The notes: generated by a model from the sequence alone, not told the origin. A stretch of 64,000 nucleotides of DNA from Synergistales bacterium (GCA_963666205.1 OY762654.1:2752001-2816000), one strand, 5' to 3'; counted from the first letter of the stretch, positions 7,176 through 51,402 are shown. Numbers and translations are program-made.

Positions 7176-7221
7176 TGGCCATAAATGTAGCCATAGTACA
7201 TATACCAATGGAGGTGTTTTC

Positions 7222-7788: not shown

Positions 7789-8150
7789 TAGTGGTGCAGG
7801 AAACTGGTAGCGATGGTTACGTATGGTGAATTAACTTGACGTAATGATTGGTGGTGCAATAATAGAAAATGCTCTTCAGATAGAATATGTTCCCTGGAAG
7901 TGTATAGTGCTTGTTGAGTGTAGGATGGATAAATTAATAATTACGGTCAAGAATAACAGAGTTGAGAATATTTCCTGATAAGAGAAGATTTCTAAGCATA
8001 GGAAACCATACTTCATGTTTGAGCTTGGCCCGGTGTTTAATATTCAAAGTTATCCAAGCCTTTAGTTGTGTCTTTCTAGAGGTTTTTCTGTAGATATTTT
8101 ATATTCAGAGTTTCAGATGGGATTTGCATGTTGTCAGGAGGGGACGAAAA

Positions 8151-12017: not shown

Positions 12018-12027
12018 TTACTGGAGG

Positions 12028-15000: not shown

Positions 15001-15234
15001 CCAAGCGAAAGGAACAGTCGAAGGCTTGCTAATCCTCAAACTGAATGGGACCTGCTCCAGGGAAGCATTATGGCTTACCGGGAGGGAGATATTGTTCTGG
15101 CAACGGACTATCTTCACAGACATGCCAGAGAGAAAATCGATCTGGTTATTGACCTGATATACGTTTGGGCATCAGAAATGTCGGACGAAAACCTTCGCAA
15201 GGAAGCCAGGGCTCTCCTTTTTGGTTTGAAATGA
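12028..15234 (+). CDS. DUF1156 adenine DNA methyltransferase with zinc ribbon
   Basis: LHVWWARRP, DPTAGGGSIPFE (motif I), CPHC/CVHC and DPPY (motif IV). Confidence 0.9.
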   Translation: MNMTDRSDLRFIETGFPCHQVGAETQRERDTGKAPPTHRLHVWWARRPLTPSRAAILGSLLPADTDPDWFLCQLGIKKKVVEINGQEWVLEGNLLEKIDLDSQGNEIFPFYINLLNDIEKENKKRVEIRKIIDDLVKRDKDLVSNPVVIQFKLISRPIDYQGVDIHSSFPVKTISGDPSWFKSLLDIAQEKDIRVPNLYGYERAFHNQPDQLFHKQVVLDPTAGGGSIPFESLRLGCRTISNELNPVASVILQATLDFPLRFGNSLIENIEKYGKILLTMLGNNLHEVFPTIQPLQGAELKELKEFLKKYPEYADIYSNEHTTTFLYCRQVICPHCHGEVPLLNTSWLSKEAGKQWGVSIITDGKERNGSVQFKIYRVSKGKGPNGEDPNFATVNQGVGYCVHCKQAIDAKEIKCQARGESEHGKWKDRLYSVVAIRFQPKLDKQGKPIRYKSGEKAGEIKTEKVRFFRTPNETDSAALRLAEKRLQENWDRWDKAGLIPTESFPEGNDMRPVIYGMDRWCDLFTPRQLFGHLTLIDELNKLKPQILSELGEEKGKAVVTYLQFAIDKGLDYNSKQTRWHYSRGVMINTFGRHDFSLKWTFGEMIFSGPNSGANWGLSQILDAYKGIAELCLSSNKEDPSVQVINGTAAHMPVIANNSVDLICMDPPYYNNVQYAELSDYFYVWQKRTLSDLYPDFFTRRLTNKQDEAVANPARDGSVLKAKKAYEKLMGDIFRECQRVLKDDGIMTLMFTHKTQEAWETLTQALIQNGWVITSSFPVESETQQGIHTKGNASATSSIFISCRKKLHNKITPSVWSDFGGSGVQNQIVEGVRAGLQGFQSLKLGPVDEMVASYGRALRVLSENWPVIDGDEMVGPSKAMNEASRVVAENQIERITQGRLHVADLSPESAMSLTLYGIYGLGEIPYDDVLNLSRSLNISLTSYTGGYQVNGSRFIGINNDSISGRRSSGADANEMGYYAPLIKKGSKLRLAKPSERNSRRLANPQTEWDLLQGSIMAYREGDIVLATDYLHRHAREKIDLVIDLIYVWASEMSDENLRKEARALLFGLK

Positions 15235-15249
15235 TAGGAGGATACAATC

Positions 15250-19845: not shown

Positions 19846-19884
19846 ATGGGTATGCCTTTTATTATGGTATACCCATTATTTTTT
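19846..19884 (+). repeat. 39-bp terminator hairpin, direct-repeat copy 1
   Basis: atgggtatgccttttattatggtatacccattatttttt, identical at 23312-23350. Confidence 0.85.
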
Positions 19885-20245
19885 TAAATAGCTTATAAAA
19901 ATAATTGTTTTTACAAGATAAAATTCTCCAATGTTGCAAAATGGGAACCAGACAGACATAAAGAAAAGATTCTTCGAATAGCAAAGGATAATCCATACAA
20001 TGAAGACTTACTTGACTAAAATAATCAAAATGTAATAATAAAAAAGCCTTTCAGAGAGAACGAGTATGAAACTTAATGTTCGCCAGTCAGCAATCGTTCA
20101 GACTTATCAGCCTTTTCAGTGATGAGAAGCAACTTATCCTTTTTTATTTCCATGTTCAATAATTTTGAACGGGATTTTTTGTAATGTCTTATGTCTTCAA
20201 GTTATATGGCATTTTACTTTTTGCTCAAATCTATAATTTATTAAG

Positions 20246-21490
20246 GTGGGGATTATTTTGAAATTGCAAAGAGCCATTTTTTCTTGTGTCAGTATTGTTT
20301 TGCTAATTTTTTGTTTTTCTCTTTTTCCAACAAAAGCTTCATTGGCAATAAGCGGAAGTTTTGATGTTGATTTTACTGCTATTACGACGGCTCTTGGTGA
20401 AGGTGATTTCCAAAGATCTATATTAAGTAAAGAAAGATTGGTTTCTCAACTTACACCAGACTTATTCACTGAAAAGAACTTTGAGAAAATTGCTCAGACT
20501 TTAAACTATATTGGGGACGAATATTTCTGGTATCTATATTCCTTGGAGAGTGGTTTATATGGTGAAAATATGCATTCCCCACAAGTCTTGGAATATTATC
20601 TGAATTATTTAGATAAATACGGGACGCTGAAAATAATCCAAAATAATTCTTTTTTCTATAAATATGGAGTAGAACTCCAAAGATTTTCAAAGGTGATAAA
20701 TGATATTGCTCTAATTGCGGAAGGCAAGAAAACAAGGTTTGGTTTTGATGATGCAATAATTGCTGGAGCAACTGCTCCTGTCGTTATTCCATCAACCATA
20801 GCAGGAACTTCGTTTGTTGCTACTTCTTTTGCTGTAGTTGCTGCTCCTGTAGCTGTAGTTGCTTCTCCTATGATTCTGATGGCTGTTCCGATTAAATTTG
20901 GGTATGACTTCCTTAAGAACAAAGATATTAACAAAAAGATTTCAACCGAAATCAACCAGATTCCGTTTTTCAAAGACGGTTCAGTAAGTGAGACTTGGAG
21001 CACAACACTTATCGGTTACAGGGAACTCCATAAAAAACTTGGTAGATATAATGCTTTTATTTCTAAACTGAAACAAAGTCTCAGGCAGAATGCCCAATTC
21101 GAATGCGAATTTATTAATAAATTTGAAACCTATGTGGCTCGACAAGAAATTGCTATCAAAAGACTTGATGGTCAACTGAGAAGCCAATTGTTTGATGCCC
21201 CAATAAGAGGTTACTGCTTGTTAACAAATATCAAAATTATTTTGGCGAAGGGATTATTGAATGATAATGAAGATCAAATACAAGATGCAGGAATATCTTT
21301 TGCGAAAACTACAGGTTTTATAAAATGTATCAAACAAGATGAAACGGCTAAACTTTGGTTTGATGTCGCTTCGAGAATTAAAGATGAACTTGGTAGAGGT
21401 AAAGGATATGAAGAACTTGTATCTAAAAGTCAACTTTCTCCTGAGTGGAGTGAACTTCCTCAAAACATGGATATTAAATGGCCAGAGTAG
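20246..21490 (+). CDS. Putative exported helical protein with a central hydrophobic hairpin
   Basis: N-terminal signal-like segment; ~45-aa Ala/Val/Pro-rich hydrophobic stretch between helical regions. Confidence 0.6.
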   Translation: MGIILKLQRAIFSCVSIVLLIFCFSLFPTKASLAISGSFDVDFTAITTALGEGDFQRSILSKERLVSQLTPDLFTEKNFEKIAQTLNYIGDEYFWYLYSLESGLYGENMHSPQVLEYYLNYLDKYGTLKIIQNNSFFYKYGVELQRFSKVINDIALIAEGKKTRFGFDDAIIAGATAPVVIPSTIAGTSFVATSFAVVAAPVAVVASPMILMAVPIKFGYDFLKNKDINKKISTEINQIPFFKDGSVSETWSTTLIGYRELHKKLGRYNAFISKLKQSLRQNAQFECEFINKFETYVARQEIAIKRLDGQLRSQLFDAPIRGYCLLTNIKIILAKGLLNDNEDQIQDAGISFAKTTGFIKCIKQDETAKLWFDVASRIKDELGRGKGYEELVSKSQLSPEWSELPQNMDIKWPE

Positions 21491-21514: not shown

Positions 21515-23227
21515 ATGTTTTCCAGAGAGAACATTACGAAAAGTCTTTACTTGTCCATATCATTGTTAATTCTTTTTTCATGTAATGCTGTTTTTGCTGA
21601 GAATGTTGCCCCCTTATTAAATGATCCCTTGTTCAATCATTTCAAAGGGGAATTAGGAGAACAAGTTGTTCGAGATTTCTTTGGATCTGAAGGTTGGTAT
21701 ATTGTCGATTCAAAGAGCGGTCCCCATGGTATAGATCTCATTGCAACAAGACCTGGTTCGAATAAACCATTAGTTATTGAAGTTAAAACAGATGGATCTC
21801 AATTAAATAAATATGCCTCTAAAACGATTGATGCATCTAATCAAAGCTACACTCAACAATCTGAAATTTATGTGAAAAGTAGAGCGGATAGTGTTAATGA
21901 TCCAAAGGTTAAACAGTTGCTTAAATCTGGAATTTACAGGGCACGTGTAGTAAGAGTTGTGATATACCCAGATTATCTGGAAATATTTTATAATCAAGTA
22001 ACCAACTTATCCGAATCAGAGATAGAGCTTAATGACATAACTTCTAAAACTTTTAAGGTACCTTCGACTTTTATTACAAAAAATGGAGGATTAAAAATAC
22101 CAATAATACCCCAAGAAGGAGAACCAGCAGTTGTTACAAAATTTAGAAACAGTTTATTTAAGTCCACCAATAGGTTATTGGAAGATCCTTATTGGAGAGA
22201 ACACCTCATCAAAAAACTCATGTTAAAAAATGGAGCAGCAAGTTCAGATGTGATATATCTAGTTGATCAGTTGTTAAAGGATCTGAAAAGTAATGATCCT
22301 GAAAGAGTTAATTTTGCTTGGAAGCAGTTTGTTGAATTAGTCGATGGTGATTTGACGAAGTTGTATGCTTATTTGAGACAATTAGGAATGTCCCCTAAAG
22401 CAGTTAATGCTGAACTTAAACTGTTGAATCAGTTAAAAGCAAGAGATCCTAAGGCATATGAAAGAAGGCTTAATAATCTCTCCTTTCGAAAGAACTGGAA
22501 GCAAGTCATTGCCAATGGTATTTCGATGTCCATGTTTAAGAACTTGGGGTTAGTTTATAGGACTGTTCAGGGACAAGAAGATTGGGAGCATGCACTGCAA
22601 CAAGTTTGTACAGATGCCTTGGGTTATTCTGCTTCTGTCAAATTAGTAAATGGGGTAATCTTTCAAACCGGTAATAAATGTGGATTTCTTAGTTGGTTGC
22701 CAAAAATGGCATCTCAGAGTGGAGCTGAATTTATTATCGCTATGACTTTATTTGACGATGCTAAAGTTACTTATTCGTATCTGTCAGGTGATCTTTCTAG
22801 GGACCAATTTGTTGATATGGTTGAAAATACAACAATCCAAGGTCTAAGAACTGGTACGTCCTATACTTTGGCCCATATATTTGTATCTAAAGCGATAATT
22901 GCTCTTGGTGTAACTTCAGGAGTAGGAACGCCTGCTGTAGTCGGTATTACAATATTGTCAGAAATTGGAGGAGCATGTGTTATTGATGCAACGCTTTCTC
23001 AACTCCTTTCAGTTTGTAAAGGGAAGTTAACAAAAGAAATTTTGACTCTTGAAGATCTAGAAAAACTATTCGGCCCTGAAATTACAAGAAAATGTACTCC
23101 ATGGAATTATACAACAGAGAAAATAACTCCTTGGGCGTTATTATCAAAATCTCAATCGTGGATAATCCCTGATAATACAAAAGAAACACCATGGTCTGTA
23201 GAAGGTAAACCTACGCCATGGGAATAG
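21515..23227 (+). CDS. Putative exported protein with PD-(D/E)xK nuclease-like domain, hydrophobic C-terminal helices and TPW repeats
   Basis: Signal peptide ending AVFA; KGELGE...GIDLIA...VIEVKT; C-terminal K-x-TPW repeats. Confidence 0.6.
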   Translation: MFSRENITKSLYLSISLLILFSCNAVFAENVAPLLNDPLFNHFKGELGEQVVRDFFGSEGWYIVDSKSGPHGIDLIATRPGSNKPLVIEVKTDGSQLNKYASKTIDASNQSYTQQSEIYVKSRADSVNDPKVKQLLKSGIYRARVVRVVIYPDYLEIFYNQVTNLSESEIELNDITSKTFKVPSTFITKNGGLKIPIIPQEGEPAVVTKFRNSLFKSTNRLLEDPYWREHLIKKLMLKNGAASSDVIYLVDQLLKDLKSNDPERVNFAWKQFVELVDGDLTKLYAYLRQLGMSPKAVNAELKLLNQLKARDPKAYERRLNNLSFRKNWKQVIANGISMSMFKNLGLVYRTVQGQEDWEHALQQVCTDALGYSASVKLVNGVIFQTGNKCGFLSWLPKMASQSGAEFIIAMTLFDDAKVTYSYLSGDLSRDQFVDMVENTTIQGLRTGTSYTLAHIFVSKAIIALGVTSGVGTPAVVGITILSEIGGACVIDATLSQLLSVCKGKLTKEILTLEDLEKLFGPEITRKCTPWNYTTEKITPWALLSKSQSWIIPDNTKETPWSVEGKPTPWE

Positions 23228-23311: not shown

Positions 23312-23350
23312 ATGGGTATGCCTTTTATTATGGTATACCCATTATTTTTT
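23312..23350 (+). repeat. 39-bp terminator hairpin, direct-repeat copy 2
   Basis: Identical to 19846-19884. Confidence 0.85.
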
Positions 23351-23385
23351 GAAGTAGCTAGATAAAATATAAATATTCAGATATT

Positions 23386-36001: not shown

Positions 36002-36204
36002 TCCCTAACATTTCCCAAAATTAAGAATATACCTTTTTTACCGGGACCATCGCTCTTAATCCAAAATATTTAGGGTTTCCCATTGAAATTATTTCAAAAT
36101 AGAAGAACCATGTATGAACTTTATTCCCTTGTTTTTAAATTTTACCTTTTGCGGTTCTTCATGAAACACCTCATTTTATAAAATCTTTTCCATTTTTTTA
36201 AGGT

Positions 36205-36281
36205 GCGCCGGTAGCTCAGCTGGATAGAGCGGCGGTCTACGGAACCGCAGGTCACGAGTTCGAATCTTGTCCGGCGCGCCA
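36205..36281 (+). tRNA. tRNA-Arg(ACG), copy 1, at the island A/B junction
   Basis: 77 nt; GCGCCGG/CCGGCGC acceptor stem, GCGGT-CTACGGA-ACCGC anticodon arm, TTCGAAT loop, encoded CCA. Confidence 0.95.
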
Positions 36282-36354
36282 TTTCTTCGAAATATTGGTA
36301 AGACTGGTTAGAATACATTCAGTAAAACATTAGAAGACCAGAGAAATTCCAGTA

Positions 36355-42504: not shown

Positions 42505-42984
42505 TTATCCTTGTGACGACGAAAAGCCGGCAAGAAGATCTTCGACCTGCTGGTTATCAATTCCCTTGCACATATCTTCGGTTACTGTTTCCCTGTTCCT
42601 TATAAGCTGATCCCTTACTATCTCTTCAGGAGTCATGGGACCAGGGTTGGAAGAGGGTATCCGGTCGATTCCCACACTTTTTAGAATCTCAAAAGCTATT
42701 TTTACCCGGAAAGGGTTCTCCGGATCAGACAATGCTTCTTCCAGGCTTTTGATTGAAGATCCGATAAGAGTGGAAAGTCTTTCCTTGTGGGATTGCCATA
42801 TTTCAGAACGTTGTTTATTGAGTTCCGCTATGAAATAAGGATTCTGATTTACCCATATACTCACAGTCTGACGGGCTATATGGATCTTTTCCGCTACTTC
42901 TGTAAGTGTATGCCCTTCCAGGATAAGGGAAACGGCTTCAAGCTGTTTATCTGATAAATGTCGGGTTTCGACCGGATTTGTCAT
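42505..42984 (-). CDS. HTH protein resembling terminase small subunits (phBC6A51-like HTH)
   Basis: LSDKQLEAV...EVAEKIHIARQTVSIW...YFIAEL...RVKIAFEIL; AGGAGG RBS. Confidence 0.6.
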   Translation of the reverse strand: MTNPVETRHLSDKQLEAVSLILEGHTLTEVAEKIHIARQTVSIWVNQNPYFIAELNKQRSEIWQSHKERLSTLIGSSIKSLEEALSDPENPFRVKIAFEILKSVGIDRIPSSNPGPMTPEEIVRDQLIRNRETVTEDMCKGIDNQQVEDLLAGFSSSQG

Positions 42985-43002
42985 TCCTAAACCTCCTATT
43001 TA

Positions 43003-43224
43003 TTAATATCCCAGATAATTATTTACTACTTTCTTAAACTTGCTTTCTGCACTTGCAATATTTTTTAGAGAATCAAAAAGTTTCTGTCTTTCTTCGGGTT
43101 CCAAGATAGAGATATTCATAAGAGACTGAATTTCCTCATTTATCTGAGTAATGTGTGTTTTAATAGCTGATTTATGATCTTGTGCTTTCGCGCATAATTC
43201 TTGGGAAACTTTCATTTTCCACAC
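43003..43224 (-). CDS. Small helical hypothetical protein
   Basis: AAGGAG RBS; in operon with the TerS-like gene. Confidence 0.55.
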   Translation of the reverse strand: MWKMKVSQELCAKAQDHKSAIKTHITQINEEIQSLMNISILEPEERQKLFDSLKNIASAESKFKKVVNNYLGY

Positions 43225-43416
43225 TCCTTTTTGAAAATTCCCTCTAAGGGACCCAATTTTCTTATGCTGTTTGGGGCCCCCGGATAGAGGGTAGACCCGA
43301 TACGGGGTGTTACATGGTGGTGTATCTCTGTGAACAAAGTCATAGACTATTTATTCCATTCTGTAATACGTGATACGTCATATAAATACCATATGTAATT
43401 CGGGGTCCTTAAGAGA

Positions 43417-43442
43417 GTATCTGGTGTATCTGGTGTATCTGG
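43417..43442. repeat. 9-bp tandem iterons (gtatctggt, about 3 copies) at the PrimPol 3' end
   Basis: gtatctggt-gtatctggt-gtatctgg, with a related ggtgtatct near 43319. Confidence 0.7.
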
Positions 43443-43443
43443 C

Positions 43444-45156
43444 TTACCATAGTTCTGTGTCAAGGAGATATTCTTCCTTTAATCTCTGTAGCATCCCAGG
43501 TTTAGACTTGTAGTATCTTCTTTGGTATTTTTTCCCTTGAAATGTTTTTTGAATAACACAGGTTTCAAAACCTTCAAGTCTTAGCCTTTTGATAATCTCA
43601 TCCTTGTCGTATTTCTTTTCGTTACCCACAAAGACCCTCTGAAAGAATTCATTCAAAATAATTGCAATTGAGCCATTGCTTTCCCAATAGAGGGGGAAAG
43701 GGGCGCGGTTTGAATCAAAGATGTTTTCAATGATCCATTTTTCATCCTTCTTGTTATCACGCTTTGAAAAAGGATCTTCCCAATTGATTGGGTCCCTATA
43801 TTTTAGGTATTCGCAAAGTTGGTCCATTATTATGTCTTCCATATTTACTACTTCTACAACAACTTGGGGCTTAAACAGGATCTCAAGTACCCGTCTCCAT
43901 TTAGCGTTTGTGTAATAGGGTATTGAGTGTTGAACCTGGCTTAAGATCTTTGCTTCTATGCTTTTAAAGCTATACAAGCTTTTTGCCGTCCCAAGTCTCA
44001 CATTTCTGCCGTTTTTAAGTTCCATTACATATTCCGAGTCCTGGGTTCTTCCGTATTGAAATACTCTTTTCACAGGGAGTTCTATGCTTTGAGAGAACTT
44101 TTCAAGAGGATCTTCTGAGGCGTACATCTTTTGGAATTCCTCAATGTCCTCTGGGGAGAACTTGCCTGAGCTTTTTATGAACTCAAGTTTCTGTTGGTTC
44201 TGATCTATTGCTCTGTTTTCATATCCTTCTTGCACAGAAGTAAGTGCTTTTTCAACAGTTATCTGTCCGTAGGTCTTTGCTCCGTGCTTTTCGTCCCATT
44301 TTTTACGATAAAGGCCGGATTGTCTGAACAGGTTATCTATTCTGTACTGGTCTCGGCTAGTCCAGAAGGCAAGATAATCACAGAGGGCCATATCTGCCTC
44401 AGATTGAGAAGGATATCCAGTTATATCTCCGTTCCATAGGCTTGTGAAGGCTCTTCCGGTCTTATCGTTGTTCATGGCCTTATCAACAAGTTCTTTATCA
44501 TCAAGGGAGTTGGGCAGGGTAGGAGTAGTGTGTATTTGTTTAATACACTTGGCCTCATCTTCTTTATTTTCGGGAAAAATCTCTTGATACATTGAAGTAA
44601 GTTCATCCTGTCTTGATTCGATGGTGCAAGGATAACCAGGAAGGGTATTTCCTGTAAGAGCAAAGAACCTTGCATGGTCATATATCTCTATCCCTATTTT
44701 GTCATCCTTGCATCTTTTATCTGATGGCTTCTGGGCTTTGACTATTACATGAAGTCCTTTCCCACTTTGGCTAATCTCAGTCCAGGAATTAAACCTTTCA
44801 ATATATTGCCTTGCTGGTTCCTCAATTTCATTTGTTCCAGGATCTCTGTAGCCGTCAAAATCAATTCCACAGAATGGGTCATTCTCTGTGAAGACAAAGC
44901 CGATCCCATCAACTTTCATTTTGATGTCTTTGTAAGTTTCGTTTGTAGGTGAGATCTCCCCTTGAGCAAGAATCCTTGTTACTTCTTCAAAGGAAGACCA
45001 TGTTGAAGGGTTAGTTGTACTTGCGTTTTTACCGTTGGTTCCGACAGGTATTTTAGTGTATTTCTCTTTTTCAGGTTTCCAAACCTTTCTCCACAGGACC
45101 CATTGATTGTACTTCTTCATTTCTTCTGGGAAGTTATTGATAAGATTATTGGTCAT
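43444..45156 (-). CDS. Primase-polymerase (NrS-1-like PrimPol with helical-bundle domain)
   Basis: QWVLW...KIP, TWSSF, GIGFV...GIDFD, EISQSGKGLH, IEIYD..RFFALTG, SEADMALC and LFRQSGL. Confidence 0.85.
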   Translation of the reverse strand: MTNNLINNFPEEMKKYNQWVLWRKVWKPEKEKYTKIPVGTNGKNASTTNPSTWSSFEEVTRILAQGEISPTNETYKDIKMKVDGIGFVFTENDPFCGIDFDGYRDPGTNEIEEPARQYIERFNSWTEISQSGKGLHVIVKAQKPSDKRCKDDKIGIEIYDHARFFALTGNTLPGYPCTIESRQDELTSMYQEIFPENKEDEAKCIKQIHTTPTLPNSLDDKELVDKAMNNDKTGRAFTSLWNGDITGYPSQSEADMALCDYLAFWTSRDQYRIDNLFRQSGLYRKKWDEKHGAKTYGQITVEKALTSVQEGYENRAIDQNQQKLEFIKSSGKFSPEDIEEFQKMYASEDPLEKFSQSIELPVKRVFQYGRTQDSEYVMELKNGRNVRLGTAKSLYSFKSIEAKILSQVQHSIPYYTNAKWRRVLEILFKPQVVVEVVNMEDIIMDQLCEYLKYRDPINWEDPFSKRDNKKDEKWIIENIFDSNRAPFPLYWESNGSIAIILNEFFQRVFVGNEKKYDKDEIIKRLRLEGFETCVIQKTFQGKKYQRRYYKSKPGMLQRLKEEYLLDTELW

Positions 45157-45248
45157 TTTAGTATCTCCTCCAACGTAATGATTTAGGGCTTAAGTGGAGG
45201 AATATGCTATAATTATTTTGGGAGTAAAAATAACATAGTCCACAGTTC

Positions 45249-45283
45249 AAAACCGTCTGTAAGCCCCGAGCAGACGGTTTTTT
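45249..45283. terminator. Bidirectional hairpin in the PrimPol leader
   Basis: aaaaccgtctg...cagacggtttttt. Confidence 0.65.
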
Positions 45284-45501
45284 CATGCACTTCTTTCTGA
45301 TAACCAGGTCTCATATTTTGAAATAAACTCACGTCCTTTCATGATCCCTGCATTTTCAAATGCATAGGCCAGTTTATAGGCTTCCTTTTGTTTCCCGTGA
45401 AAGACTTTCCACAGGTACCCATGACTTACACCTATTCGCTTTGCCAATTTCCTAAAGGATAGATTCTCGCTTTCCATTGCTTCTGTAATAGGGTTTTCCA
45501 T
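45283..45501 (-). CDS. XRE/Cro-like HTH regulator
   Basis: SFRKLAKRIGVSHGYLWKV; GGAGG RBS. Confidence 0.75.
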   Translation of the reverse strand: MENPITEAMESENLSFRKLAKRIGVSHGYLWKVFHGKQKEAYKLAYAFENAGIMKGREFISKYETWLSERSA

Positions 45502-45550
45502 TACATTTCAACCTCCAATGTCCGTAAAAACCTAACATTACACAATAGTT

Positions 45551-45579
45551 ATTATAATTAATAAAGCAGGAGTTGTCAA
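45551..45579 (-). promoter_or_regulatory. Consensus sigma70 promoter for the HTH-PrimPol operon
   Basis: TTGACA-17 nt-TATAAT on the minus strand. Confidence 0.75.
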
Positions 45580-45900
45580 CATAAAAAACAGGTAACCATC
45601 AACACATAACATGCTCTCTAAAATGTAAAAGCGAGGTTGACATATGTAAAGTATTGATTTACAAAACAGATAAATGTCAGGGAAAAAATGGTATCTCAAA
45701 GTTTACAAGGGGGGGTAAATTGTCTATAATAATTACAGGAAGGCTAATGCTTCCGAACAAGTGAGGGATTAAATAACTTCAGTATTTTGCAAGGGCTTAG
45801 CTAAACTTCGTAGAGCATTATCTTTCCAATAACATCAAGTGTGTACAATATCGTTGCAGGTGGTGTTTTGCAAGGGGATCTGTTGGTGAAAAAAACTGGA

Positions 45901-45926
45901 TACATTGGCGAGACCGCAGTCCTTGA
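45901..45926 (+). repeat. Island-end motif, island B right copy
   Basis: tacattggcgagaccgcagtccttga. Confidence 0.75.
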
Positions 45927-46005
45927 CAATCAAATAAGATGAGAATCATATTTTGAGCCATGCGATAAAGCCGGCCATAGCCTCACCCACCGCCATTTTT
46001 AAGGT

Positions 46006-46082
46006 GCGCCGGTAGCTCAGCTGGATAGAGCGGCGGTCTACGGAACCGCAGGTCACGAGTTCGAATCTTGTCCGGCGCGCCA
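46006..46082 (+). tRNA. tRNA-Arg(ACG), copy 2, at the island B/C junction
   Basis: Identical to 36205-36281. Confidence 0.95.
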
Positions 46083-46232
46083 TTTCTTGTAAGTCGTTGC
46101 AAACACCGCTCTATCAGCCATAACTGGTGCAGTTAAGTGAGCTCGGTATCCTTCGGAGACCGTCGCTCTTGAGCACCGGCGACCGTGCTTCAAAAGTTAC
46201 CTCTCATTCACTCAGAATGGGAGGTTTTTTTT

Positions 46233-47186
46233 ATGGGTAAGAGTAACGTGGTTTTCTGTAACTCATGGGGTAACTCTTCTTACCAGTGGGAGGATCTGCT
46301 GGAGGAGTTTCTCATATTCAAGTCAGCTGAGGGGAAGTCAGACAGAACTGTTCTTGACTACCGGAATCATGTGACCAGATTCTTCCGTGCATATCCGGAT
46401 GTGCTGTGCCATCCATCCTCACTCAAAAGGTCTATCCTCGCATACCTCAAGAGTGCCAAGACACCCACTACCTATAATTTGAGACTCCAGAACCTGCGAG
46501 TATTCTTCGACTGGTTGATGGAAGAGGGGATAGCATCGGAAAATCCCTTAAGAAGGTTCAAGAAGAAGAGGAATCCGGGGAAATTTGTCCCAGTGAATGA
46601 GGAGATCCTCCAATCACTGCTGTCCCTTCCGGACAAAAAGACCTTCTCAGGGTTGAGGGATTACTGTCTCATCCTCTTCACCCTCGATACTGCTACTAGA
46701 CCGTGGGAAGCACTACAGCTGTTGCCATCCAACTGCAACCCCAGAAGTCTTGAGGTCACCATCCCTTCCCATATATCGAAGACTAGGGTATCCAGAACAG
46801 TCTATATCTCTGCCAGCACGTCCAAACAGCTGAGGAGACTATTAAGGTTAAGACATCCCCAGTGGAAGGAGGATGTGACCATATTCTGCTCCAGAGACGG
46901 TAAAGTTATGAAAGAGACATCATGGGGTCAGCAGATGAGAAGGTATAGCTTAAAACTGGGTTACAAGGTGACTCCGTACATGTTGCGCCACAGTTCTGCC
47001 ACCCTGTTCCTGCGGAACGGGGGGAACGCGGTGGCATTACAGAGGATGATGGGTCATACCTCCATGGAGATGACGGAAAGATATGTACATCTAGTGGAAG
47101 GGGACATAAGGGATCAGCATGCGAAGTTCTCTGCGTTAAAAAGAGTTGTAGAAGAGACTAACCGTATCCATAAGATAAAGGGATGA
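46233..47186 (+). CDS. Tyrosine integrase of island C
   Basis: DTATRPWEAL, SKTR, PYMLRH and MGHTSMEMTERY; GGAGG RBS. Confidence 0.92.
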   Translation: MGKSNVVFCNSWGNSSYQWEDLLEEFLIFKSAEGKSDRTVLDYRNHVTRFFRAYPDVLCHPSSLKRSILAYLKSAKTPTTYNLRLQNLRVFFDWLMEEGIASENPLRRFKKKRNPGKFVPVNEEILQSLLSLPDKKTFSGLRDYCLILFTLDTATRPWEALQLLPSNCNPRSLEVTIPSHISKTRVSRTVYISASTSKQLRRLLRLRHPQWKEDVTIFCSRDGKVMKETSWGQQMRRYSLKLGYKVTPYMLRHSSATLFLRNGGNAVALQRMMGHTSMEMTERYVHLVEGDIRDQHAKFSALKRVVEETNRIHKIKG

Positions 47187-47237
47187 AGTTTGAAAATTAG
47201 CGGGGTTTACATCCGAATAGGTTCATATATAACTAAT

Positions 47238-47273
47238 GGGGGGTGGGTTTTATACCCTCCCCCCCTCTTTTTT
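47238..47273 (+). terminator. G/C-tract terminator after the integrase
   Basis: gggggggtggg...ccctccccccc followed by a T-run. Confidence 0.6.
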
Positions 47274-47539
47274 CTGAAACTTAAATTTTAAGAATCTGTC
47301 AAGACATTAGATTTGTTGTGATATTAAGTCATCGGGATGTTTCTGCAACTATATAACATAGTAAGGGTTTCATATTTACGCGTATTTTTAAATTCGTCAG
47401 TAAAAGTATAGATTTTCGAAAAGACTATGTAATATGAAATTTGCTATTTCCATTTTGAAAAGAAAGGGTTAAAGTGGTTGCCCGAAATATTTATTTCTAA
47501 ATTACAGAGAACTAATTTAGTGTATAATATTTCTGGAGG

Positions 47540-48079
47540 TTGATAATGATGTTAGAGGGAAAATTGATTTGTAAAATCATTTTGGACTTCTTAGGTGAAG
47601 ATGGTATTACGGAATATGACGAAAGATATGACATCCGTCTTATGGTTCAGAAGCTTATTTACATGTTCCAAGAGATTGGTCAAATCCCAGGGTATTCTTT
47701 TAGTTGGTATTTGGCTGGACCATATTCTAACCAATTGACAAAAACTATGTTCAATGATGTCGTTCCTCAAGTAGAATCTTTTATCAAATCTGCCGATGAA
47801 CTTAGTCTTACTGACGAAGGTACTGATCTTTTTCGTAAACTCCATAGTTTTTTTGACCATGTTGATGATGAAACATTACGTTCTAAAAAATTGAGAAAAT
47901 TTCAGTGGTACGAATTACTTGCTTCAAGTCACTATATTTATAAGACAACTCACAATATCGAGAGAGATATGTTAATTAAGCGTTTAGGAATCTCTAAAAA
48001 AGCGTATACGCGCTCTCAGATTGAGTTTGTGGTTGATCAATATTTCTCGATAAGAAGTTCTGGGGATATTGTTAATTAA
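47540..48079 (+). CDS. YwgA/DUF4065 (Panacea)-like protein
   Basis: RLMVQKLIY...YSFSWYLAGPYSNQL...ELLASSHY. Confidence 0.65.
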   Translation: MIMMLEGKLICKIILDFLGEDGITEYDERYDIRLMVQKLIYMFQEIGQIPGYSFSWYLAGPYSNQLTKTMFNDVVPQVESFIKSADELSLTDEGTDLFRKLHSFFDHVDDETLRSKKLRKFQWYELLASSHYIYKTTHNIERDMLIKRLGISKKAYTRSQIEFVVDQYFSIRSSGDIVN

Positions 48080-48087
48080 TCCTTCGC

Positions 48088-49707
48088 ATGTCCAATTCCG
48101 CTAAGAGAAATATTAATGTTTATGACAATATTTATGGATACATTCACCTCGAGAAATCTCGTTATCAAAAGATTCTTGAACACCCTCTATTTCTTCGACT
48201 GCATAATATAAAACAAATGGGTTATTGCAACTTTGTGTTTCCCGATGCGATTCACACAAGATATTCTCATTCCCTAGGAGTCTATTACTTAGTTAAAAAA
48301 ATGATAGAAGCGCAAGAAAGAAAATTTATAAATCTTAGCTGTAGGTTTTATGCAGACTTTCCTAATGAAAAAGATGATTTATTGTTAAGTGCTTTATTGC
48401 ATGATATTGGTCATTTACCTCTTTCTCATACAGTCGAAGCAGCATTAGAGAGATATGAGAAGTTTTCGTACGAGAAAATAAAAGATGAAATGGAAGATGA
48501 AACTCAAAAAAAACAGATCGCGGAAGGTTTAGCAAATAATTTTTATTCTAAACCAGAATTTAAGCGTAATGGTACGAAGTTGCACGAACAACTAGGAGAA
48601 GATGTGCTACTTAATACATCTTTACATGATCTTCTTGTTGACGAACTTGAAGTAGAACCTTTGGAAATCTCTAACCGATTTAAAGGGGTTCTCGGTGATG
48701 ATTTAGATTCTTCCCCTAAAAATGGTAAGGAAGAAGATAAAGGTATGATAGGGTTAAGGCATAGTAGAAATTTCCTTCATTCCCAACTGGATGCAGACCG
48801 CATCGAATATCTACTTAGAGATTCCACCTTTACCGGAGTTAAGTCAGGAGCATTTGATTTTGAAAAACTTCTTGCTGAGATTAGATATACTGAAACTGCT
48901 AAATATGGTGTCCATATTGATGCATTAAGAGTATTAGAGCAATTCTTCATGGCAAGATTTGCAGCATATGCGCAAATCGTATTTCATAAACGTGTTGAAG
49001 GTTATGATTTGTTGGCACAAGATTTTTATTTTTCCTTGTTAAGGGATAGGGATAATCCAGAGATTAACCATGATGGAAAAGGCTACCCTAAGGTATTTAG
49101 TTATCCAGAAATTAAAGATCAATTAATGAAAGATGAAAAATGGTTTTACAGTTTTACCGATAGCTATTTCGAGCAACTGATTTATGAAGTTTTAGATACA
49201 AAGGTAAAGTTGGGTCAAAAAATTTTTTCCTATGCAAAAATGTTGCAAGAAAGAAAACCATTTAAGTGTGTTTATGAAGAGCAAAAAATGTGTACTCCTG
49301 ATCAATGGGAAAACTGGTCAATGGAAGATTCTCTTATTACATGTGTTGCTGAAAATGTTGAAGAATTTATGAAAATAGCTAGAGTTTCTAAAGATTCGTT
49401 CCTCCTAAAATTGATTCCTAATGATAGATATTCTTCTGACATGCAGTATTATTGGGATCTTTTTTATTTTGGTAAAGCTCTTTCGATATTTGATAGGGAT
49501 TCGAAGTATGATCAACTATACGCTTTTAAAACAGGGAAACCACCAGAACATTTAAAGAATTGTGAAAGCACTTTTTTAAAGTTAGATCTAGAAAAACTTT
49601 ACGTTCAAAGGATATTCGCTACTGATTTGGATATGGCAAAAAGATTAGAGGATGGACTTAAGAGGTTTGCTGACACAAAAAACAAAAAATACGATAATCA
49701 TTGTTAG
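48088..49707 (+). CDS. SAMHD1/YwfO-like HD phosphohydrolase (putative dNTP triphosphohydrolase)
   Basis: RLHNIKQMG, HTRYSHSLG, LLHDIGH.PLSH, HEQ, LDADRIEYLLRD and VFHK. Confidence 0.85.
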   Translation: MSNSAKRNINVYDNIYGYIHLEKSRYQKILEHPLFLRLHNIKQMGYCNFVFPDAIHTRYSHSLGVYYLVKKMIEAQERKFINLSCRFYADFPNEKDDLLLSALLHDIGHLPLSHTVEAALERYEKFSYEKIKDEMEDETQKKQIAEGLANNFYSKPEFKRNGTKLHEQLGEDVLLNTSLHDLLVDELEVEPLEISNRFKGVLGDDLDSSPKNGKEEDKGMIGLRHSRNFLHSQLDADRIEYLLRDSTFTGVKSGAFDFEKLLAEIRYTETAKYGVHIDALRVLEQFFMARFAAYAQIVFHKRVEGYDLLAQDFYFSLLRDRDNPEINHDGKGYPKVFSYPEIKDQLMKDEKWFYSFTDSYFEQLIYEVLDTKVKLGQKIFSYAKMLQERKPFKCVYEEQKMCTPDQWENWSMEDSLITCVAENVEEFMKIARVSKDSFLLKLIPNDRYSSDMQYYWDLFYFGKALSIFDRDSKYDQLYAFKTGKPPEHLKNCESTFLKLDLEKLYVQRIFATDLDMAKRLEDGLKRFADTKNKKYDNHC

Positions 49708-49742
49708 AAATTAATTCTGATTTTGCTTACACGCATAGAAAC

Positions 49743-50297
49743 TTAACCAATGACCCTATATAAGGTCGACCGACTTATCCCCAACATCTCTGCGATCTCA
49801 TTGGGGTTATTATTCCTATCTGCCATCAATTTCTTCGCCATGGCAACCTGCTCTGCAGATAACTTAGGTTTCCTACCACCTTTCCTACCTCTAGCACGTG
49901 CTGACTTTAATCCTGCCATGGTTCTTTCCCTTATCAGGTTACGCTCAAACTCTGCAAGGGAACCGAATATATGGAATATAAGCTTTCCACCGTTAGTAGT
50001 GGTGTCAAACCCCTCTTGTATGCTCTTAAAGCCTATACCATGTTCCTCAAGGGTATTAACCACATCTATGAGGTGTCTGAGGGATCTGCCCAGTCTATCT
50101 AGTCTCCAGACAACAAAAGTATCCCCTTCACGCAGATGTTCCATTGCTTCCTTCAGTTGAACCCTTTCTGTACGTGCTCCGCTTGCTGTCTCATGGAATA
50201 CCTTCTCACATCCTGCTTGCTTCAATGCATCGATCTGCAGATCCAGTGACTGTTCCTCTGTAGATACCCTTGCGTAACCTATTAACATGTTCTGCAC
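49743..50297 (-). CDS. Serine recombinase (resolvase/invertase)
   Basis: IGYARVST, VWRLDRLGRS, AEFER, GGRKPK and C-terminal HTH. Confidence 0.92.
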   Translation of the reverse strand: MQNMLIGYARVSTEEQSLDLQIDALKQAGCEKVFHETASGARTERVQLKEAMEHLREGDTFVVWRLDRLGRSLRHLIDVVNTLEEHGIGFKSIQEGFDTTTNGGKLIFHIFGSLAEFERNLIRERTMAGLKSARARGRKGGRKPKLSAEQVAMAKKLMADRNNNPNEIAEMLGISRSTLYRVIG

Positions 50298-50304
50298 CTC
50301 CCCA

Positions 50305-50456
50305 GTTGTGTTATCCGAACTGTATCATAAAGGATATATAGATGGCAAATCAGGACTATGATAATAACACAGTGTTATGGGATAGTATCTACTGAAGGAA
50401 ACGGATGTCTATGAAGGAGTAGAGAAGTGTCCCACAAACGACCGTTAGTGATACGG
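50305..50456. promoter_or_regulatory. Putative res site upstream of the resolvase
   Basis: Imperfect palindromes such as tgtcccacaaacgaccgttagtgatac, plus tgtatcataaa and ttatgggata. Confidence 0.45.
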
Positions 50457-50671
50457 AACTCTATAAATATCAGGAGGTAAAATCAGAGTTCAATAAATCT
50501 CTTATCCATCAATGAAATTAGACGATTCTGTGGATGAAAAATCTACCTTATCTATATCCAGATCTGGAAATATTTCCCAAAAGTATAATTCTGCATGTAA
50601 TGTTAACTAATTTTCGTAGAGTAAGTTGTATTTACTGTCCATCTCTCCAAAACATTTCTAAAAATAATTCC

Positions 50672-50726
50672 TTGACAAATAGAGAGTGAAACCGTTATGC
50701 TACCGTTATAACGGTAGCATAACGGT
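50672..50726 (+). promoter_or_regulatory. GntR promoter with a perfect 36-bp palindromic operator
   Basis: TTGACA at 50672; accgttatgctaccgtta|taacggtagcataacggt at 50691-50726 overlapping the -10. Confidence 0.7.
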
Positions 50727-50772
50727 GGAATAACGTTAAGAGATAACAAAATAAAGATGGGAGAGTTGTTTT

Positions 50773-51402
50773 ATGGAAACTAAATCTGATCTTGCCTATA
50801 AGAAGATTCGAGAAATGATTATGACGGGTCAGTTAAATAAGGATACGAGAATTTCTCTGCAAGGTGTTGCTAACCAATTAAATATTAGCAAATCACCAGT
50901 GCGTGATGCCTTTCAGAGGCTGCAAAACGATGGGTTGGTCAAGGTATTTCCAAATCAGGGAATATTTATCCAGGAACTATCATTGAATGAGGCAGTTGAG
51001 ATTTATGAGTTAAGAATAGCTTTGGAATCTTATGTACTTGAACAAGTCTTTCCTTTAATTCGAGAACAGGATTTGTTCAACTTACGTCAGATATTAGACA
51101 GGCAAAAAGAAGCTTTGGAAAATAATGATCCCTACACATTTATGCAATATGACACAGAACAGCATACATATTTTCTTGAGCTGTATTCCAACCAGGTTTT
51201 TTTAGAAACCATGAGTTCCTTGAGGACTAGGGTCTTTCACGCGGGTGTTCGAGCATTAATGTCTGGAGCCATGCAGCCTACGTATCAAGATCATGTTTCA
51301 ATTATCAATTCCTTGGAAAAAGGTGACTTTGAAGAGACCATGCTGCATCTAAAAAGACATCTTAAGAGAGGACTTAACGTTACTTCTGGAGCAAGATCTT
51401 AA
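50773..51402 (+). CDS. GntR/FCD transcriptional regulator
   Basis: ISKSPVRDAFQRL..DGLV HTH; EIYELRIALE FCD domain. Confidence 0.9.
   Translation: METKSDLAYKKIREMIMTGQLNKDTRISLQGVANQLNISKSPVRDAFQRLQNDGLVKVFPNQGIFIQELSLNEAVEIYELRIALESYVLEQVFPLIREQDLFNLRQILDRQKEALENNDPYTFMQYDTEQHTYFLELYSNQVFLETMSSLRTRVFHAGVRALMSGAMQPTYQDHVSIINSLEKGDFEETMLHLKRHLKRGLNVTSGARS

Follow-up and report, generated by a model that had tools for sequence, protein, structure and literature searches.

Two adjoining genes, g1 and g2, behind the integrase of a tRNA-associated unit in a Synergistales bacterium encode a small protein of the YwgA family and an HD enzyme that resembles SAMHD1 in motifs and predicted fold. Structure prediction favours binding between the two proteins, and their families are neighbours in many bacterial and archaeal genomes. 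The reading that we favour, tentatively and at slightly less than even chances, is that g1-g2 constitute a two-protein nucleotide-depleting module, a partner-controlled dNTPase carried as mobile cargo that starves phages or rival elements. The window, that is, the whole stretch of DNA that was analysed, comprises 64,000 nt (GCA_963666205.1 OY762654.1:2752001-2816000).

Results

Layout of the locus

The open reading frames of g1 and g2 are co-directional on the + strand and separated by an 8 nt gap (Table 1). Their GC content is 0.31-0.36, compared with 0.48-0.50 for the integrase, which agrees with the initial annotation of a low-GC two-gene operon directly behind an integrase. Translation of g1 is likely to start at the ATG rather than at the TTG upstream of it, because a GGAGG (47535-47539) lies 6 nt 5' of this ATG and the database protein P0001 also begins there. 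On the 3' side of the integrase stop, a hairpin folds at -21.4 kcal/mol (z -2.45), and only 2 of 200 shuffles fold equally well. This hairpin is terminator-like, so g1-g2 probably have their own promoter, apart from that of the integrase. It was spotted by eye and then folded; a simple terminator scan of 47100-50400 returned 0 sites, and no good terminator was seen 3' of g2. Promoter-like sites in the region numbered 12, with 12.1 expected from shuffles, and the one before g1 is thus in a class that shows no excess over chance. An Rfam scan of 45500-50900 found the tRNA only, besides one sub-threshold palindrome match. The resolvase gene that follows g2 raised the idea of an invertible segment, which was rejected as there were no convincing inverted repeats around g1-g2.

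Table 1. Features of the window in and around the g1-g2 locus
Feature	Position	Strand	Description
tRNA-Arg(ACG), first copy	36205-36281		Identical to second copy
Perfect 93-nt repeat	36195-36287 / 45996-46088		Encloses both tRNA-Arg(ACG) copies
Prim-pol module	42505-45501		Upstream of second tRNA
tRNA-Arg(ACG), second of two identical copies	46006-46082	+	ARAGORN; Rfam tRNA 62.9 bits
Tyrosine recombinase (integrase), 333 aa	46185-47186	+	Pfam Phage_integrase 1.1e-24
G+C-rich hairpin, then U-tract	47238-47273	+	3' of integrase stop; terminator-like
Promoter-like site ATTACA-16-TATAAT	47501-47528	+	10/12 matches; just 5' of g1 ribosome-binding site; consensus match only
g1	47546-48079	+	Small protein of the YwgA family; 177 aa if started at ATG 47546, 179 aa if at TTG 47540
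g2	48088-49707	+	539 aa; homologous to SAMHD1/EF1143-type HD (d)NTP triphosphohydrolases, with intact catalytic motifs
Small serine recombinase (resolvase/invertase type)	49743-50297	-	Pfam Resolvase 9e-47 + HTH_7; convergent with g2

The pair sits in a unit formed by tRNA-Arg(ACG), integrase and cargo. The integrase shares 73% identity over 129 nt with the integrase that comes after the first tRNA copy, and the second tRNA copy is likely to be the attachment site and the left edge of the unit. A search for attR with the tRNA 3' end (up to 3 mismatches) recovered only the two full tRNA copies. The pair had been assigned to an 'island C'. The integrase is indeed directly upstream, but the prim-pol module lies before the second tRNA and therefore may be part of the preceding element. 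In the slots of the sibling integrases, PADLOC called AbiU-like (AIPR) and AbiL (RloA/B) genes, matching the AIPR and RloAB reported for island B, and a Hma-type system in the first island.

The pair is present in a single copy in the source genome. Among 41 related genomes of the same order, three gave any match, the window's own included, and the other two matches were weak (E 6.5e-24 and 4.2e-22, compared with 3.2e-169 for the window's own gene); none of the four same-family genomes had one. Six loci of the closest subfamily had usable flanks. Three of them border on mobile elements (this window; L082, which follows a prophage tail gene; L101, beside an integrase), and three are flanked by metabolic genes (L001, L002 and L083). 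The best reading is that g1-g2 are carried as low-GC mobile cargo and were acquired horizontally.

The HD enzyme

By sequence and predicted fold, g2 is an HD enzyme of the SAMHD1/EF1143 type with intact motifs. All the motifs quoted for both genes in the initial annotation can be read in the translations, those of g2 being IKQMG..HTRYSHS, LLHDIGH, LHEQLGE and QLDADR. The HD domain PF01966 matches residues 58-156 with 34.9 bits (curated Pfam cut-off 22), and H105, D106, H109, H114, H166, E167, D235, D237 and R238 are invariant in 27 relatives, with H61 near-invariant. The catalytic blocks line up with their counterparts in EF1143 and SAMHD1 (HSLGV, HDxGH and DxDR/K), and we take the individual residues to correspond to the catalytic residues in SAMHD1 numbering.

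Sequence matches in the PDB were EF1143 (2o6i, 2e-28), 2hek, 2q14 and SAMHD1 (~1e-12 over residues 11-399). The predicted model of g2 (pLDDT 83, pTM 0.85) matched EF1143 3irh/4lrl in Foldseek with E 1e-16 and TM 0.72-0.74 normalised to the target, and 9mr6, 6pwy and human SAMHD1 with E 1e-14 to 1e-16. These matches bear out the earlier description of g2 as SAMHD1-like. The 'long C-terminal extension' that was part of this description is not clearly extra, as EF1143 and SAMHD1 chains align with the model along its entire length, across about 515-600 columns. The interval from HD to DxDR is about 55-60 residues longer than in EF1143 and 2hek. Pfam detected the HD domain only, with no SAM domain, and without the HD_assoc_2 that more distant relatives carry.

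We found that g2 lies, by profile comparison, outside the known anti-phage dGTPase family. It gave only a partial match to the PADLOC dGTPase profile (E 9.7e-6, 23 bits, residues 26-123), 16 bits with the NCBIfam anti-phage dGTPase model NF003701 (cut-off 383) and 20-25 bits with Dgt models (cut-offs 152-439).

The substrate of g2 is presumably a dNTP. We think it improbable that the enzyme acts on something else (NTPs, signalling or modified nucleotides, or nucleic-acid ends) with g1 as a winged-helix-like nucleic-acid-binding adaptor or the transcription factor of the operon. Such a role would fit the replacement of SAMHD1 DTPQFQRLR (D..Q..R), positions that we take to be its guanine-specific allosteric site, by EHPLFLRLH (E..L..H) in the alignment with g2. 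It would also fit the merely generic PDB names of 2hek and 2q14, which are among the closest solved relatives, and winged-helix-type matches of the C-terminal half of the g1 model, which are weak and have Z values in a range common for helical models (5.4-6.7). However, g2 has the full catalytic set and the whole-length fold of the proven dNTPases EF1143 and SAMHD1, and in the predicted interface the conserved YwgA signature of g1 faces the enzyme rather than DNA.

The YwgA-family partner

No Pfam family covers g1, whose translation contains QKLIYMF and WYLAGPYS. A word-index search returned g1 alone, and a full HMMER search was needed to find relatives, giving 532 representatives at E <= 1e-3; a locus search with a smaller g1-family alignment gave only 8 loci. 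JGI names 22 of the 120 listed relatives 'uncharacterized protein YwgA' and the other named ones 'hypothetical', which supports the earlier view of g1 as YwgA-like and places it, by sequence, in the family that JGI calls YwgA. Members have about 155-180 aa and the signature QKxxY...WY.GPYS...ELLAS, in which Q35, G58, P59 and Y60 are invariant and W54 and Y55 near-invariant. One further candidate, P0173 (2270 aa, 14 matching stretches), was dropped; the family HMM found no YwgA domain in it, and the match is probably one of low complexity.

The predicted model of g1 (pLDDT 96.6) carries the fold of the DarT-binding C-terminal domain of DarG. This domain (7yk3) was the top Foldseek match, with probability 1.00, and 7yk3_D aligned at Z 14.0 and rmsd 2.5 Å over 148 of 177 residues, the next match being at Z 6.7. 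Furthermore, the g1-family profile matched 7yk3 only in the PDB (3e-5), and g1 matched the PADLOC DarG profile (2e-7) at positions 175-319 of 329 only. With the NCBIfam DarG model g1 scored 20 bits (cut-off 250). An N-terminal macrodomain is absent from g1, and the adjoining gene encodes the HD protein, not a DarT. The link of g1 to the toxin-binding domain of DarG is strong, both in the profiles and in the model.

The initial annotation had called g1 Panacea-like. Kinship with antitoxin domains stands, firmly for the C-terminal domain of DarG, but the Panacea link is weak, and the sequences suggest a distant sister family at best. Alignment of g1 to Panacea (PF13274) by hhalign gave 63% and E 6.9e-5 over 90 columns that include QKxxY..GP (0.2% for the control alignment). 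PF13274 itself returned nothing for g1 even at E <= 10, matched 0 of 86 family members and had no match in the source genome. The Atlas pointer to Panacea was likewise weak (score 0.85; PF13274 on 13% of cluster members).

The predicted complex

Prediction of the g1-g2 complex gave ipSAE values, which express model confidence and are not a measurement, of 0.86, 0.86 and 0.80, while the best of 3 controls gave 0.00. The ipSAE mark is reached by 116 of 157 solved complexes and by 2 of 215 mismatched pairs, a comparison that is rough here, custom alignments having been used. At least 61% of contacts were common to the runs, and partner pLDDT was at least 89. Prediction thus favours the complex that the initial annotation had put forward for checking. 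The score is unlikely to come from a memorised structure, because no PDB entry shows a YwgA/DarG-like domain in complex with an HD protein.

In the predicted complex, the surface of g2 contacted by g1 is an element of three helices (about residues 165-199), directly after the catalytic His-Glu dyad, with the loops on either side of it (142-160 and 200-223). On the g1 side, the near-invariant W54 and Y55 touch g2 residues 192-196. We estimate that g1 and g2 probably form a functional complex. The partner may be an inhibitor or an activator, and the chances that g1 is inhibitory to g2 appear even.

Pairing of the two families across genomes

Adjacency of YwgA and HD genes is conserved, whichever of the two families is taken as the starting point. 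Of 80 genome-contig loci with an HD relative, 34 have a YwgA-like open reading frame beside the HD gene, among them 19 of the 21 best-matching loci. Of the metagenome loci with an HD relative, 59 of 80 showed the same, as did 2 of 7 such viral contigs. From the other side, an HD relative lies within 3 kb of 28 of the 34 YwgA-like genes that were sampled independently (17/19 in an archaeal order, 11/15 in a Bacillota class). Bacillota, Planctomycetota, Nitrospirota, Patescibacteria, Asgard and Thermoproteota are among the taxa spanned. Occurrence is patchy; the family was found in 21 of 61 genomes of the archaeal order, where the gene order never varied, and in 15 of 112 genomes of a second set.

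At the 34 paired genome loci, the YwgA gene was upstream in 17, downstream in 13 and convergent in 4, and in some homologous pairs elsewhere the genes overlap. In the Bacillota class the HD gene came first in 11 of 11 paired cases. The opposite order, YwgA first, was found in the window, in its closest relatives and in the archaeal order. In Bacillus subtilis ywfO-ywgA, the HD gene presumably comes first and YwgA second, which is the order of the Bacillota class. The earlier remark that the pair is inverted relative to ywfO-ywgA fits these counts.

A tblastn search with g1 against phages and plasmids found no match, a single-sequence search being weak at such divergence. Relatives of g2 occurred in 11 phage and 42 plasmid records, with no nearby YwgA-like open reading frame in the 3 examined. 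A partner-specific insertion in paired HD proteins was considered and dropped, the HD-to-DxDR spacing having a median of 99 in paired and 110 in unpaired proteins.

Partnerless HD relatives, with room on both sides, made up 38 of the 80 genome loci. So many relatives without a partner indicate that the HD enzyme does not inherently need an antidote. This bears on a classical type II toxin-antitoxin pair, in which the HD enzyme would be the toxin and g1 the labile antitoxin, and which would stabilise the element by addiction. The co-directional operon with its short gap here and overlaps in homologues, the predicted direct binding (ipSAE 0.86 vs 0.00), the place on a mobile element, and the kinship of g1 to DarG and weakly to Panacea, both toxin-binding neutralisers (PMC8832971), would all suit such a pair. 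Nevertheless, we consider it quite unlikely. Gene order is fixed within lineages and core-gene synteny is stable, unlike typical mobile toxin-antitoxin pairs, and the main texts of the Panacea and NetFlax papers (PMC8832971, PMC10440598) name no HD or dNTPase toxin.

A further point against addiction is that the putative toxin is an enzyme of 539 aa whose characterised relatives, EF1143 and SAMHD1, are allosterically regulated.

Neighbourhoods elsewhere and the question of defence

Pfam annotation of 135 neighbours at the 34 paired loci showed mostly metabolic, translation and DNA-repair genes. Synteny was conserved within lineages, with ThiN/GGR/DUF2208 in archaea, CorC and urocanase in Planctomycetota, and a PF0610-like gene and a thioesterase in Asgard. 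DNA-repair genes (Nth, UDG, RecO, DinB and XPD) were neighbours at 5 paired loci. PADLOC profiles matched 12 of the 135 neighbours at E <= 1e-10; about 10 of these were generic cross-hits (e.g. ABC ATPases, ThiF), leaving WYL and PDC-M24B. Enrichment beside known defence genes, which the initial annotation had expected, was not seen in this small sample of 34 loci, taken without formal background. The wider YwgA-HD family is not associated with defence islands; its contexts are largely those of housekeeping genes, an outcome that the initial annotation had listed among those that would speak against its reading.

These neighbourhoods are what a housekeeping sanitiser of dNTP pools or DNA precursors would be expected to have. 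YwgA would then tune or target the dNTPase for the fidelity of replication and repair, and the place in an island would be incidental and without an immune role. We regard this as possible, though clearly below even probability. Besides the core-gene neighbours with lineage-conserved synteny, the repair genes and the few genuine PADLOC matches, it is favoured by the constant gene order in the archaeal genomes that carry the family. Passages in two papers also place YwfO among genes co-evolving with PolC (PMC3814617) and propose it as a non-standard nucleotide hydrolase (PMC4993169). Several observations are harder to reconcile with housekeeping. The spread is patchy (21/61, 15/112 and 3/41 genomes), and some relatives follow prophage tail genes or lie in viral contigs. 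In the window, the pair is low-GC cargo behind a tRNA and an integrase whose sibling slots hold defence systems, and the sole solved structural relative of g1 is an antitoxin domain.

The defence or toxin-antitoxin role first proposed for the pair is upheld only in part. The sibling slots with AbiU/AbiL and Hma, and relatives almost all of which lack the pair, speak for it, but the neighbours elsewhere are mostly housekeeping genes. A role of g1-g2 in defence within this element is plausible at somewhat under even chances; any immune role, like the trigger of release, is putative.

Discussion

In the mechanism that we favour, g2 would hydrolyse dNTPs to deoxynucleosides and triphosphate, and g1 would clamp on the three-helix element beside the His-Glu dyad, most likely holding g2 in check or gating it in the manner of an antitoxin. 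The low-GC cassette would have been acquired horizontally and would travel as cargo after the integrase of a tRNA-Arg integrative element. Once restraint is lifted, incoming phages or rival elements would be starved of dNTPs, which is the most likely use of the pair.

A wider proposal is that YwgA proteins are a dedicated protein brake on prokaryotic SAMHD1-type dNTPases, an ancient sister of the C-terminal domain of DarG and of Panacea domains that extends from Bacillota to Asgard. The brake would rest on the helices beside the catalytic dyad; phage infection or DNA damage would dislodge or destroy it and so set off dNTP depletion, and the window copy would be an immune cassette. We consider this proposal as a whole unlikely.

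SAMHD1-type dNTPases restrict animal viruses, and dGTPases restrict viruses in bacteria. Such enzymes raise the question of how a cell spares its own replication. Clover offers one answer, an inhibitory nucleotide signal, and the YwgA-HD pair points to a second one that is based on a protein, a small partner whose binding near the active site is predicted with high confidence. If confirmed, the pair would give a function to the uncharacterised YwgA family, connect it with the antitoxin domains of DarG and Panacea, and provide a simple two-gene system in which to study the regulation of dNTP depletion. If the brake reading is true, bacteria and archaea would control SAMHD1 homologues through an antitoxin-like subunit.

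Comparison with known systems

Our searches of the literature on YwgA/YwfO returned nothing on function or a complex, and those on DarG, SAMHD1-type and anti-phage dNTPases and HD-type toxin-antitoxin systems described no YwgA-HD pairing. The closest characterised relatives of g2 are EF1143 of Enterococcus faecalis (2o6i, 3irh, 4lrl) and SAMHD1 (human, C. elegans and fungal, 9mr6), which are tetrameric HD dNTP triphosphohydrolases. With them g2 shares the whole-length predicted fold and the H..HD..H..HE..DxD motif set. It differs in the small protein partner encoded beside it; none has been described for EF1143 or SAMHD1 in the literature searched.

The likeness of g1 to the C-terminal domain of DarG (7yk3) extends over its whole length. 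A DarG domain reportedly neutralises its partner toxin by binding, as the title of a 2023 study by Deep et al. has it. Unlike DarG, g1 has no macrodomain, and its partner is an HD hydrolase rather than the ADP-ribosyltransferase DarT, so that g1 is not a DarG. The core QKxxY...GP(Y/V) of Panacea/SocA (PF13274, DUF4065; the PanA antitoxins) is also present in g1. The DarG C-terminal domain binds and inhibits its partner enzyme, and Panacea antitoxins form complexes with many unrelated toxins (PMC8832971).

HD-type dNTPases are known as immune effectors from anti-phage dGTPases and from Clover, and g2 is of the HD type too. A stand-alone dGTPase is said, in a 2022 preprint by Tal et al., to protect against phage by dNTP depletion. 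g2 differs from dGTPase defence in failing the PADLOC and NCBIfam dGTPase models and in belonging to a YwgA-HD family found mostly outside defence contexts. Two further papers describe Vdg as an octameric anti-phage dGTPase (PMC13519002) and Clover, CloA/CloB, as a system in which the second gene restrains the dNTPase until infection (PMC12265719). Clover achieves this restraint through a nucleotide signal that a nucleotidyltransferase produces, whereas g1 is predicted to act as a binding protein.

The g1-g2 locus and its enzyme

The small YwgA-family gene (g1) and the neighbouring HD-domain gene (g2) lie in the setting tabulated below, and all motifs that the initial annotation had cited for them could be read in the translations. 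The start of g1 is most likely the ATG at 47546 (177 aa), because a GGAGG (47535-47539) ends 6 nt before it and the database copy (P0001) likewise begins there. The GC content of the pair is 0.31-0.36, compared with 0.48-0.50 in the integrase just upstream. Past the integrase stop lies a hairpin with a U-tract, and g1-g2 is therefore probably a transcription unit of its own.

Features at and around the g1-g2 pair (window positions)
Feature	Position	Strand	Remarks
tRNA-Arg(ACG)	46006-46082		directly before the integrase and the pair
tyrosine integrase	46185-47186		immediately upstream of the g1-g2 pair
G+C-rich hairpin and U-tract	47238-47273		3' of the integrase stop; -21.4 kcal/mol, z -2.45
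g1	47540-48079	+	ORF; co-directional with g2
g2	48088-49707	+	ORF; 8 nt after g1
small serine recombinase	49743-50297		convergent, downstream of g2

Farther along, a perfect 36-nt palindrome (50691-50726) lies about 45 nt upstream of a GntR/FCD regulator gene (50773-51402) that is followed by a TRAP-type transporter. This regulator probably uses the palindrome as its operator; the palindrome's match to an Rfam RNA was sub-threshold and dismissed as noise.

Pfam found only an HD domain in g2 (34.9 bits). The best PDB sequence matches were EF1143 (2o6i/3irh/4lrl; 2e-28), Aquifex 2hek, Bacteroides 2q14, fungal SAMHD1 9mr6, and human SAMHD1 (about 1e-12 across residues 11-399). Residues H105, D106, H109, H114, H166, E167, D235, D237 and R238 were invariant in 27 aligned relatives and H56, R58 and H61 nearly so: the family's metal-binding and catalytic residues are all retained. 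The AlphaFold model (pLDDT 83, pTM 0.85) was matched over its whole length by EF1143 and SAMHD1 chains (E 1e-16, target-normalised TM 0.72-0.74). Matches, motifs and fold together bear out the earlier description of g2 as SAMHD1-like. There were few close relatives, at 36-46% identity and about 500 aa in length, and most came from Clostridia-type metagenome bins; g2 is a new member of a known enzyme family. EF1143 and SAMHD1 are proven to hydrolyse dNTPs, as papers by Vorontsov reportedly show. Because the activity of both enzymes is proven, g2 would be expected to hydrolyse dNTPs as well, and it is improbable that it acts on some other substrate.

g1 is related to the toxin-binding domain of DarG

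We found no Pfam family for g1, even at E <= 10. A full HMMER search among 1.84 billion representatives returned 532 relatives at E <= 1e-3, and nearly all of the best 150 of these were 140-200 aa long. Among the matches listed, 22 of 120 relatives carried the JGI name 'uncharacterized protein YwgA', the other names all being 'hypothetical'. The C-terminal part of PADLOC's DarG model (positions 175-319 of 329) matched g1 at 2e-7, and the g1 family profile matched PDB 7yk3_B, which is DarG in the M. tuberculosis DarTG complex (3e-5). The g1 model (pLDDT 96.6) gave 7yk3 as the top Foldseek match (probability 1.00), and an all-against-all structural search placed 7yk3_D first (Z 14.0, rmsd 2.5 A, 148/177 residues; runner-up Z 6.7). 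We conclude that g1 is a YwgA-family protein homologous to the DarG toxin-binding domain, and that its family is uncharacterised.

The initial annotation had called g1 Panacea/YwgA-like. The JGI names uphold the YwgA half of this label; the Pfam Panacea model, PF13274, matched 0 of 86 aligned g1 relatives. When the YwgA profile was compared by hhalign with 25 ORFs found by PF13274 in genomes of the same phylum, the probability was 63% (E 6.9e-5; control alignment 0.2%) over 90 columns, the QKxxY...GP core among them, making g1 at most a distant sister of Panacea. Our literature search found no published kinship of YwgA to DarG or Panacea and no published pairing with SAMHD1-type enzymes.

The two genes are conserved partners

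Searching from HD relatives, we found the HD gene immediately flanked by a YwgA-like ORF at 34 of 80 genome-contig loci (17 upstream and 13 downstream on the same strand, 4 convergent); at 38 of the 80 the HD relative had room on both sides and no partner. Pairing was present at 19 of the 21 best-matching genome loci, one of the remaining two being an HD gene that runs off its contig, and also at 59 of 80 metagenome loci and on 2 of 7 viral contigs. Paired taxa include Bacillota, Planctomycetota, Nitrospirota, Desulfobacterota-type bins, Patescibacteria, Asgard archaea and Thermoproteota. A reverse test, independent of HD, covered 3 kb on either side of YwgA hits in an archaeal order (19 of 23 rows) and a Bacillota class (15 of 17), leaving out two seed genomes and short partial hits (three archaeal, of 76-78 profile positions, and one Bacillota-class, of 45). 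An HD relative lay near 17 of the 19 archaeal hits, with YwgA upstream every time, and near 11 of the 15 Bacillota-class hits, with YwgA downstream every time. Genes of the g1 and g2 types are partners far beyond the window, forming a conserved pair in which an intact SAMHD1/EF1143-type enzyme is accompanied by a DarG-C-terminal-like protein. In one Bacillota genome, two proteins of ~372 aa (L244 470-1585, L245 1149-2270) have a weak YwgA-like region (E 1e-9 and 1e-8) and no HD neighbour; these may be a fused or diverged form.

Complex prediction for g1 and g2 gave ipSAE values of 0.86, 0.86 and 0.80, compared with 0.00 for the best of three controls; the runs had at least 61% of contacts in common, with a partner pLDDT of at least 89. 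The calibration mark was reached by 116 of 157 solved complexes and by 2 of 215 mismatched pairs, a guide that is only rough here, where our own alignments were used. Recall of a known complex is unlikely to explain the score, since the one relative of g1 with a solved structure is in complex with an unrelated enzyme. The predicted interface comprises residues 142-223 of g2, with helices 165-176, 178-186 and 191-199 right after the H166/E167 dyad and two loops disordered in the monomer model; on the g1 side, the signature residues W54 and Y55 take part. The prediction supports binding, and the two proteins probably interact physically.

Setting of the pair in its genome

The 2.95-Mb genome has a single copy each of g1 and g2. 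Of the 41 genomes in the same order, only 3 had any match to the HD profile, one of them being the window's own, and in the same family 0 of 4 had one; the other two matches in the order were weak (E 6.5e-24 and 4.2e-22, compared with 3.2e-169 for g2 itself). A perfect 93-nt direct repeat (36195-36287 and 45996-46088) holds an identical tRNA-Arg(ACG) in each copy. About 100 nt beyond each tRNA comes one of two related tyrosine integrases, with cargo behind it; this arrangement suggests integrative elements inserted in tandem at a single tRNA site. The rest of the 64-kb window has no partial tRNA 3' end (attR). The cargo is an AbiU-like AIPR protein with AbiL behind the first tRNA (PADLOC 5.5e-33, 9.6e-89, 7e-25) and g1-g2 behind the second. 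A third integrase (7153-7788) precedes a four-gene Hma-type cargo (8124-19149; PADLOC HmaC 4e-70, HmaB 1.3e-72), which has a DUF7680 gene and a helicase matching PbeA, PLD_Helicase and HmaA; this cargo is not DISARM. The initial annotation had reasoned from the pair's integrase-adjacent place, where a sibling island carries AIPR and RloAB. Inside the window this argument holds, because the sibling integrases are followed by AbiU-like/AbiL and Hma-type systems. In this lineage the pair belongs to the mobile, accessory gene content, and we tentatively read the window's copy as defence-type.

Two further observations come from elsewhere in the window. A second nucleotide-directed HD enzyme (640-1794, minus strand), with a YfbR-like 5'-deoxynucleotidase domain, a ~190 aa N-terminal extension and no PADLOC match, is located on mobile DNA and adjoins a DUF927 primase-helicase gene. 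Direct repeats of 58 nt, 90% identical (19846-19903 and 23312-23369), enclose ORFs 20246-21490 and 21515-23227, neither matching Pfam or PADLOC; they may form a cassette.

Neighbourhoods elsewhere

Three of the six loci of the closest subfamily with usable flanks touch mobile DNA: the window, L082 (immediately behind a prophage tail gene) and L101 (beside an integrase fragment). The others (L001, L002, L083) lie between metabolic genes. At 34 paired loci whose flanks extended for 3 kb or more, we also surveyed the two nearest ORFs on each side (135 proteins). Pfam assigned them mostly core functions, with synteny kept within lineages, such as ThiN, geranylgeranyl reductase and DUF2208 in Thermoproteota, CorC and urocanase in Planctomycetota, and a PF0610-like gene and a thioesterase in Asgard archaea. 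DNA-repair genes (Nth, UDG, RecO, DinB, XPD-like helicase) occurred at five loci, recombinase or transposase genes at four (L009, L046, L135, L146), and defence-flavoured domains (Schlafen/AlbA_2, WYL, DUF1828, LPD38) at a few. At E <= 1e-10 PADLOC matched 12 of the 135, five being ABC-transporter ATPases and others ThiF, Nth, the XPD-like helicase, an ArsR-type HTH and an IS607-type recombinase; WYL and PDC-M24B are left as matches that may be meaningful. In this small sample an enrichment of homologues in defence islands was not borne out, and neighbourhoods outside the window argue against a general defence role. These wider contexts favour a housekeeping role in the dNTP pool or in repair, with g1 as an accessory subunit, which we consider the main rival explanation for the window's copy, a little less likely than the defence-type one. 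The family is patchy, not universal (21 of 61 genomes of the archaeal order, 15 of 112 of the Bacillota class).

On the IMG/VR viral contig L094 (190-8583), a YwgA-like/HD pair lies right after three Mtd_N (major tropism determinant) ORFs and before an HTH_3 gene, the place of a (pro)phage moron. In Klebsiella phage ST11-VIM1phi8.3 (L246 2415-6072), a SAMHD1-like HD gene with no YwgA-like partner sits near the phage's integrase, surrounded by genes that do not look phage-derived (LysR regulator, oxidoreductase, protease). On alphaproteobacterial plasmids (L247 1131-4916, L248 267-3886), such a gene is the fourth of an annotated operon (radical SAM protein, 3'-5' exonuclease, AAA ATPase, HD), with no YwgA-like ORF near it.

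Proposed mechanism and known systems

We rate the pair as a putative dNTPase together with a regulatory protein of antitoxin ancestry. g1 would control g2 by binding beside the catalytic dyad, and by analogy with the DarG C-terminal domain and Panacea antitoxins this control is most likely inhibitory. Deep et al. 2023 reportedly describe this DarG domain as a mimic of ssDNA. DarG 'directly binds to and inhibits' DarT, in the words of one account (PMC8832971). The initial annotation had proposed a small protein restraining a dNTPase until phage infection, in a defence or toxin-antitoxin system; an addiction module seems unlikely to us. On the window's element, release of the brake would let the module deplete dNTPs, as is stated for bacterial dGTPase systems (PMC13519002) and for Clover (PMC12265719). 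Were the reading confirmed, the YwgA family would gain a function.

g2 falls outside the known anti-phage dGTPase family, the PADLOC dGTPase model reaching 23 bits over residues 26-123 only and the NCBIfam model 16 bits against a cut-off of 383. g1 has no PF13274 match of its own and is not a Pfam Panacea member. Nor is it a DarG, as macrodomain and DarT are both absent; its likeness to DarG lies in the toxin-binding C-terminal domain.
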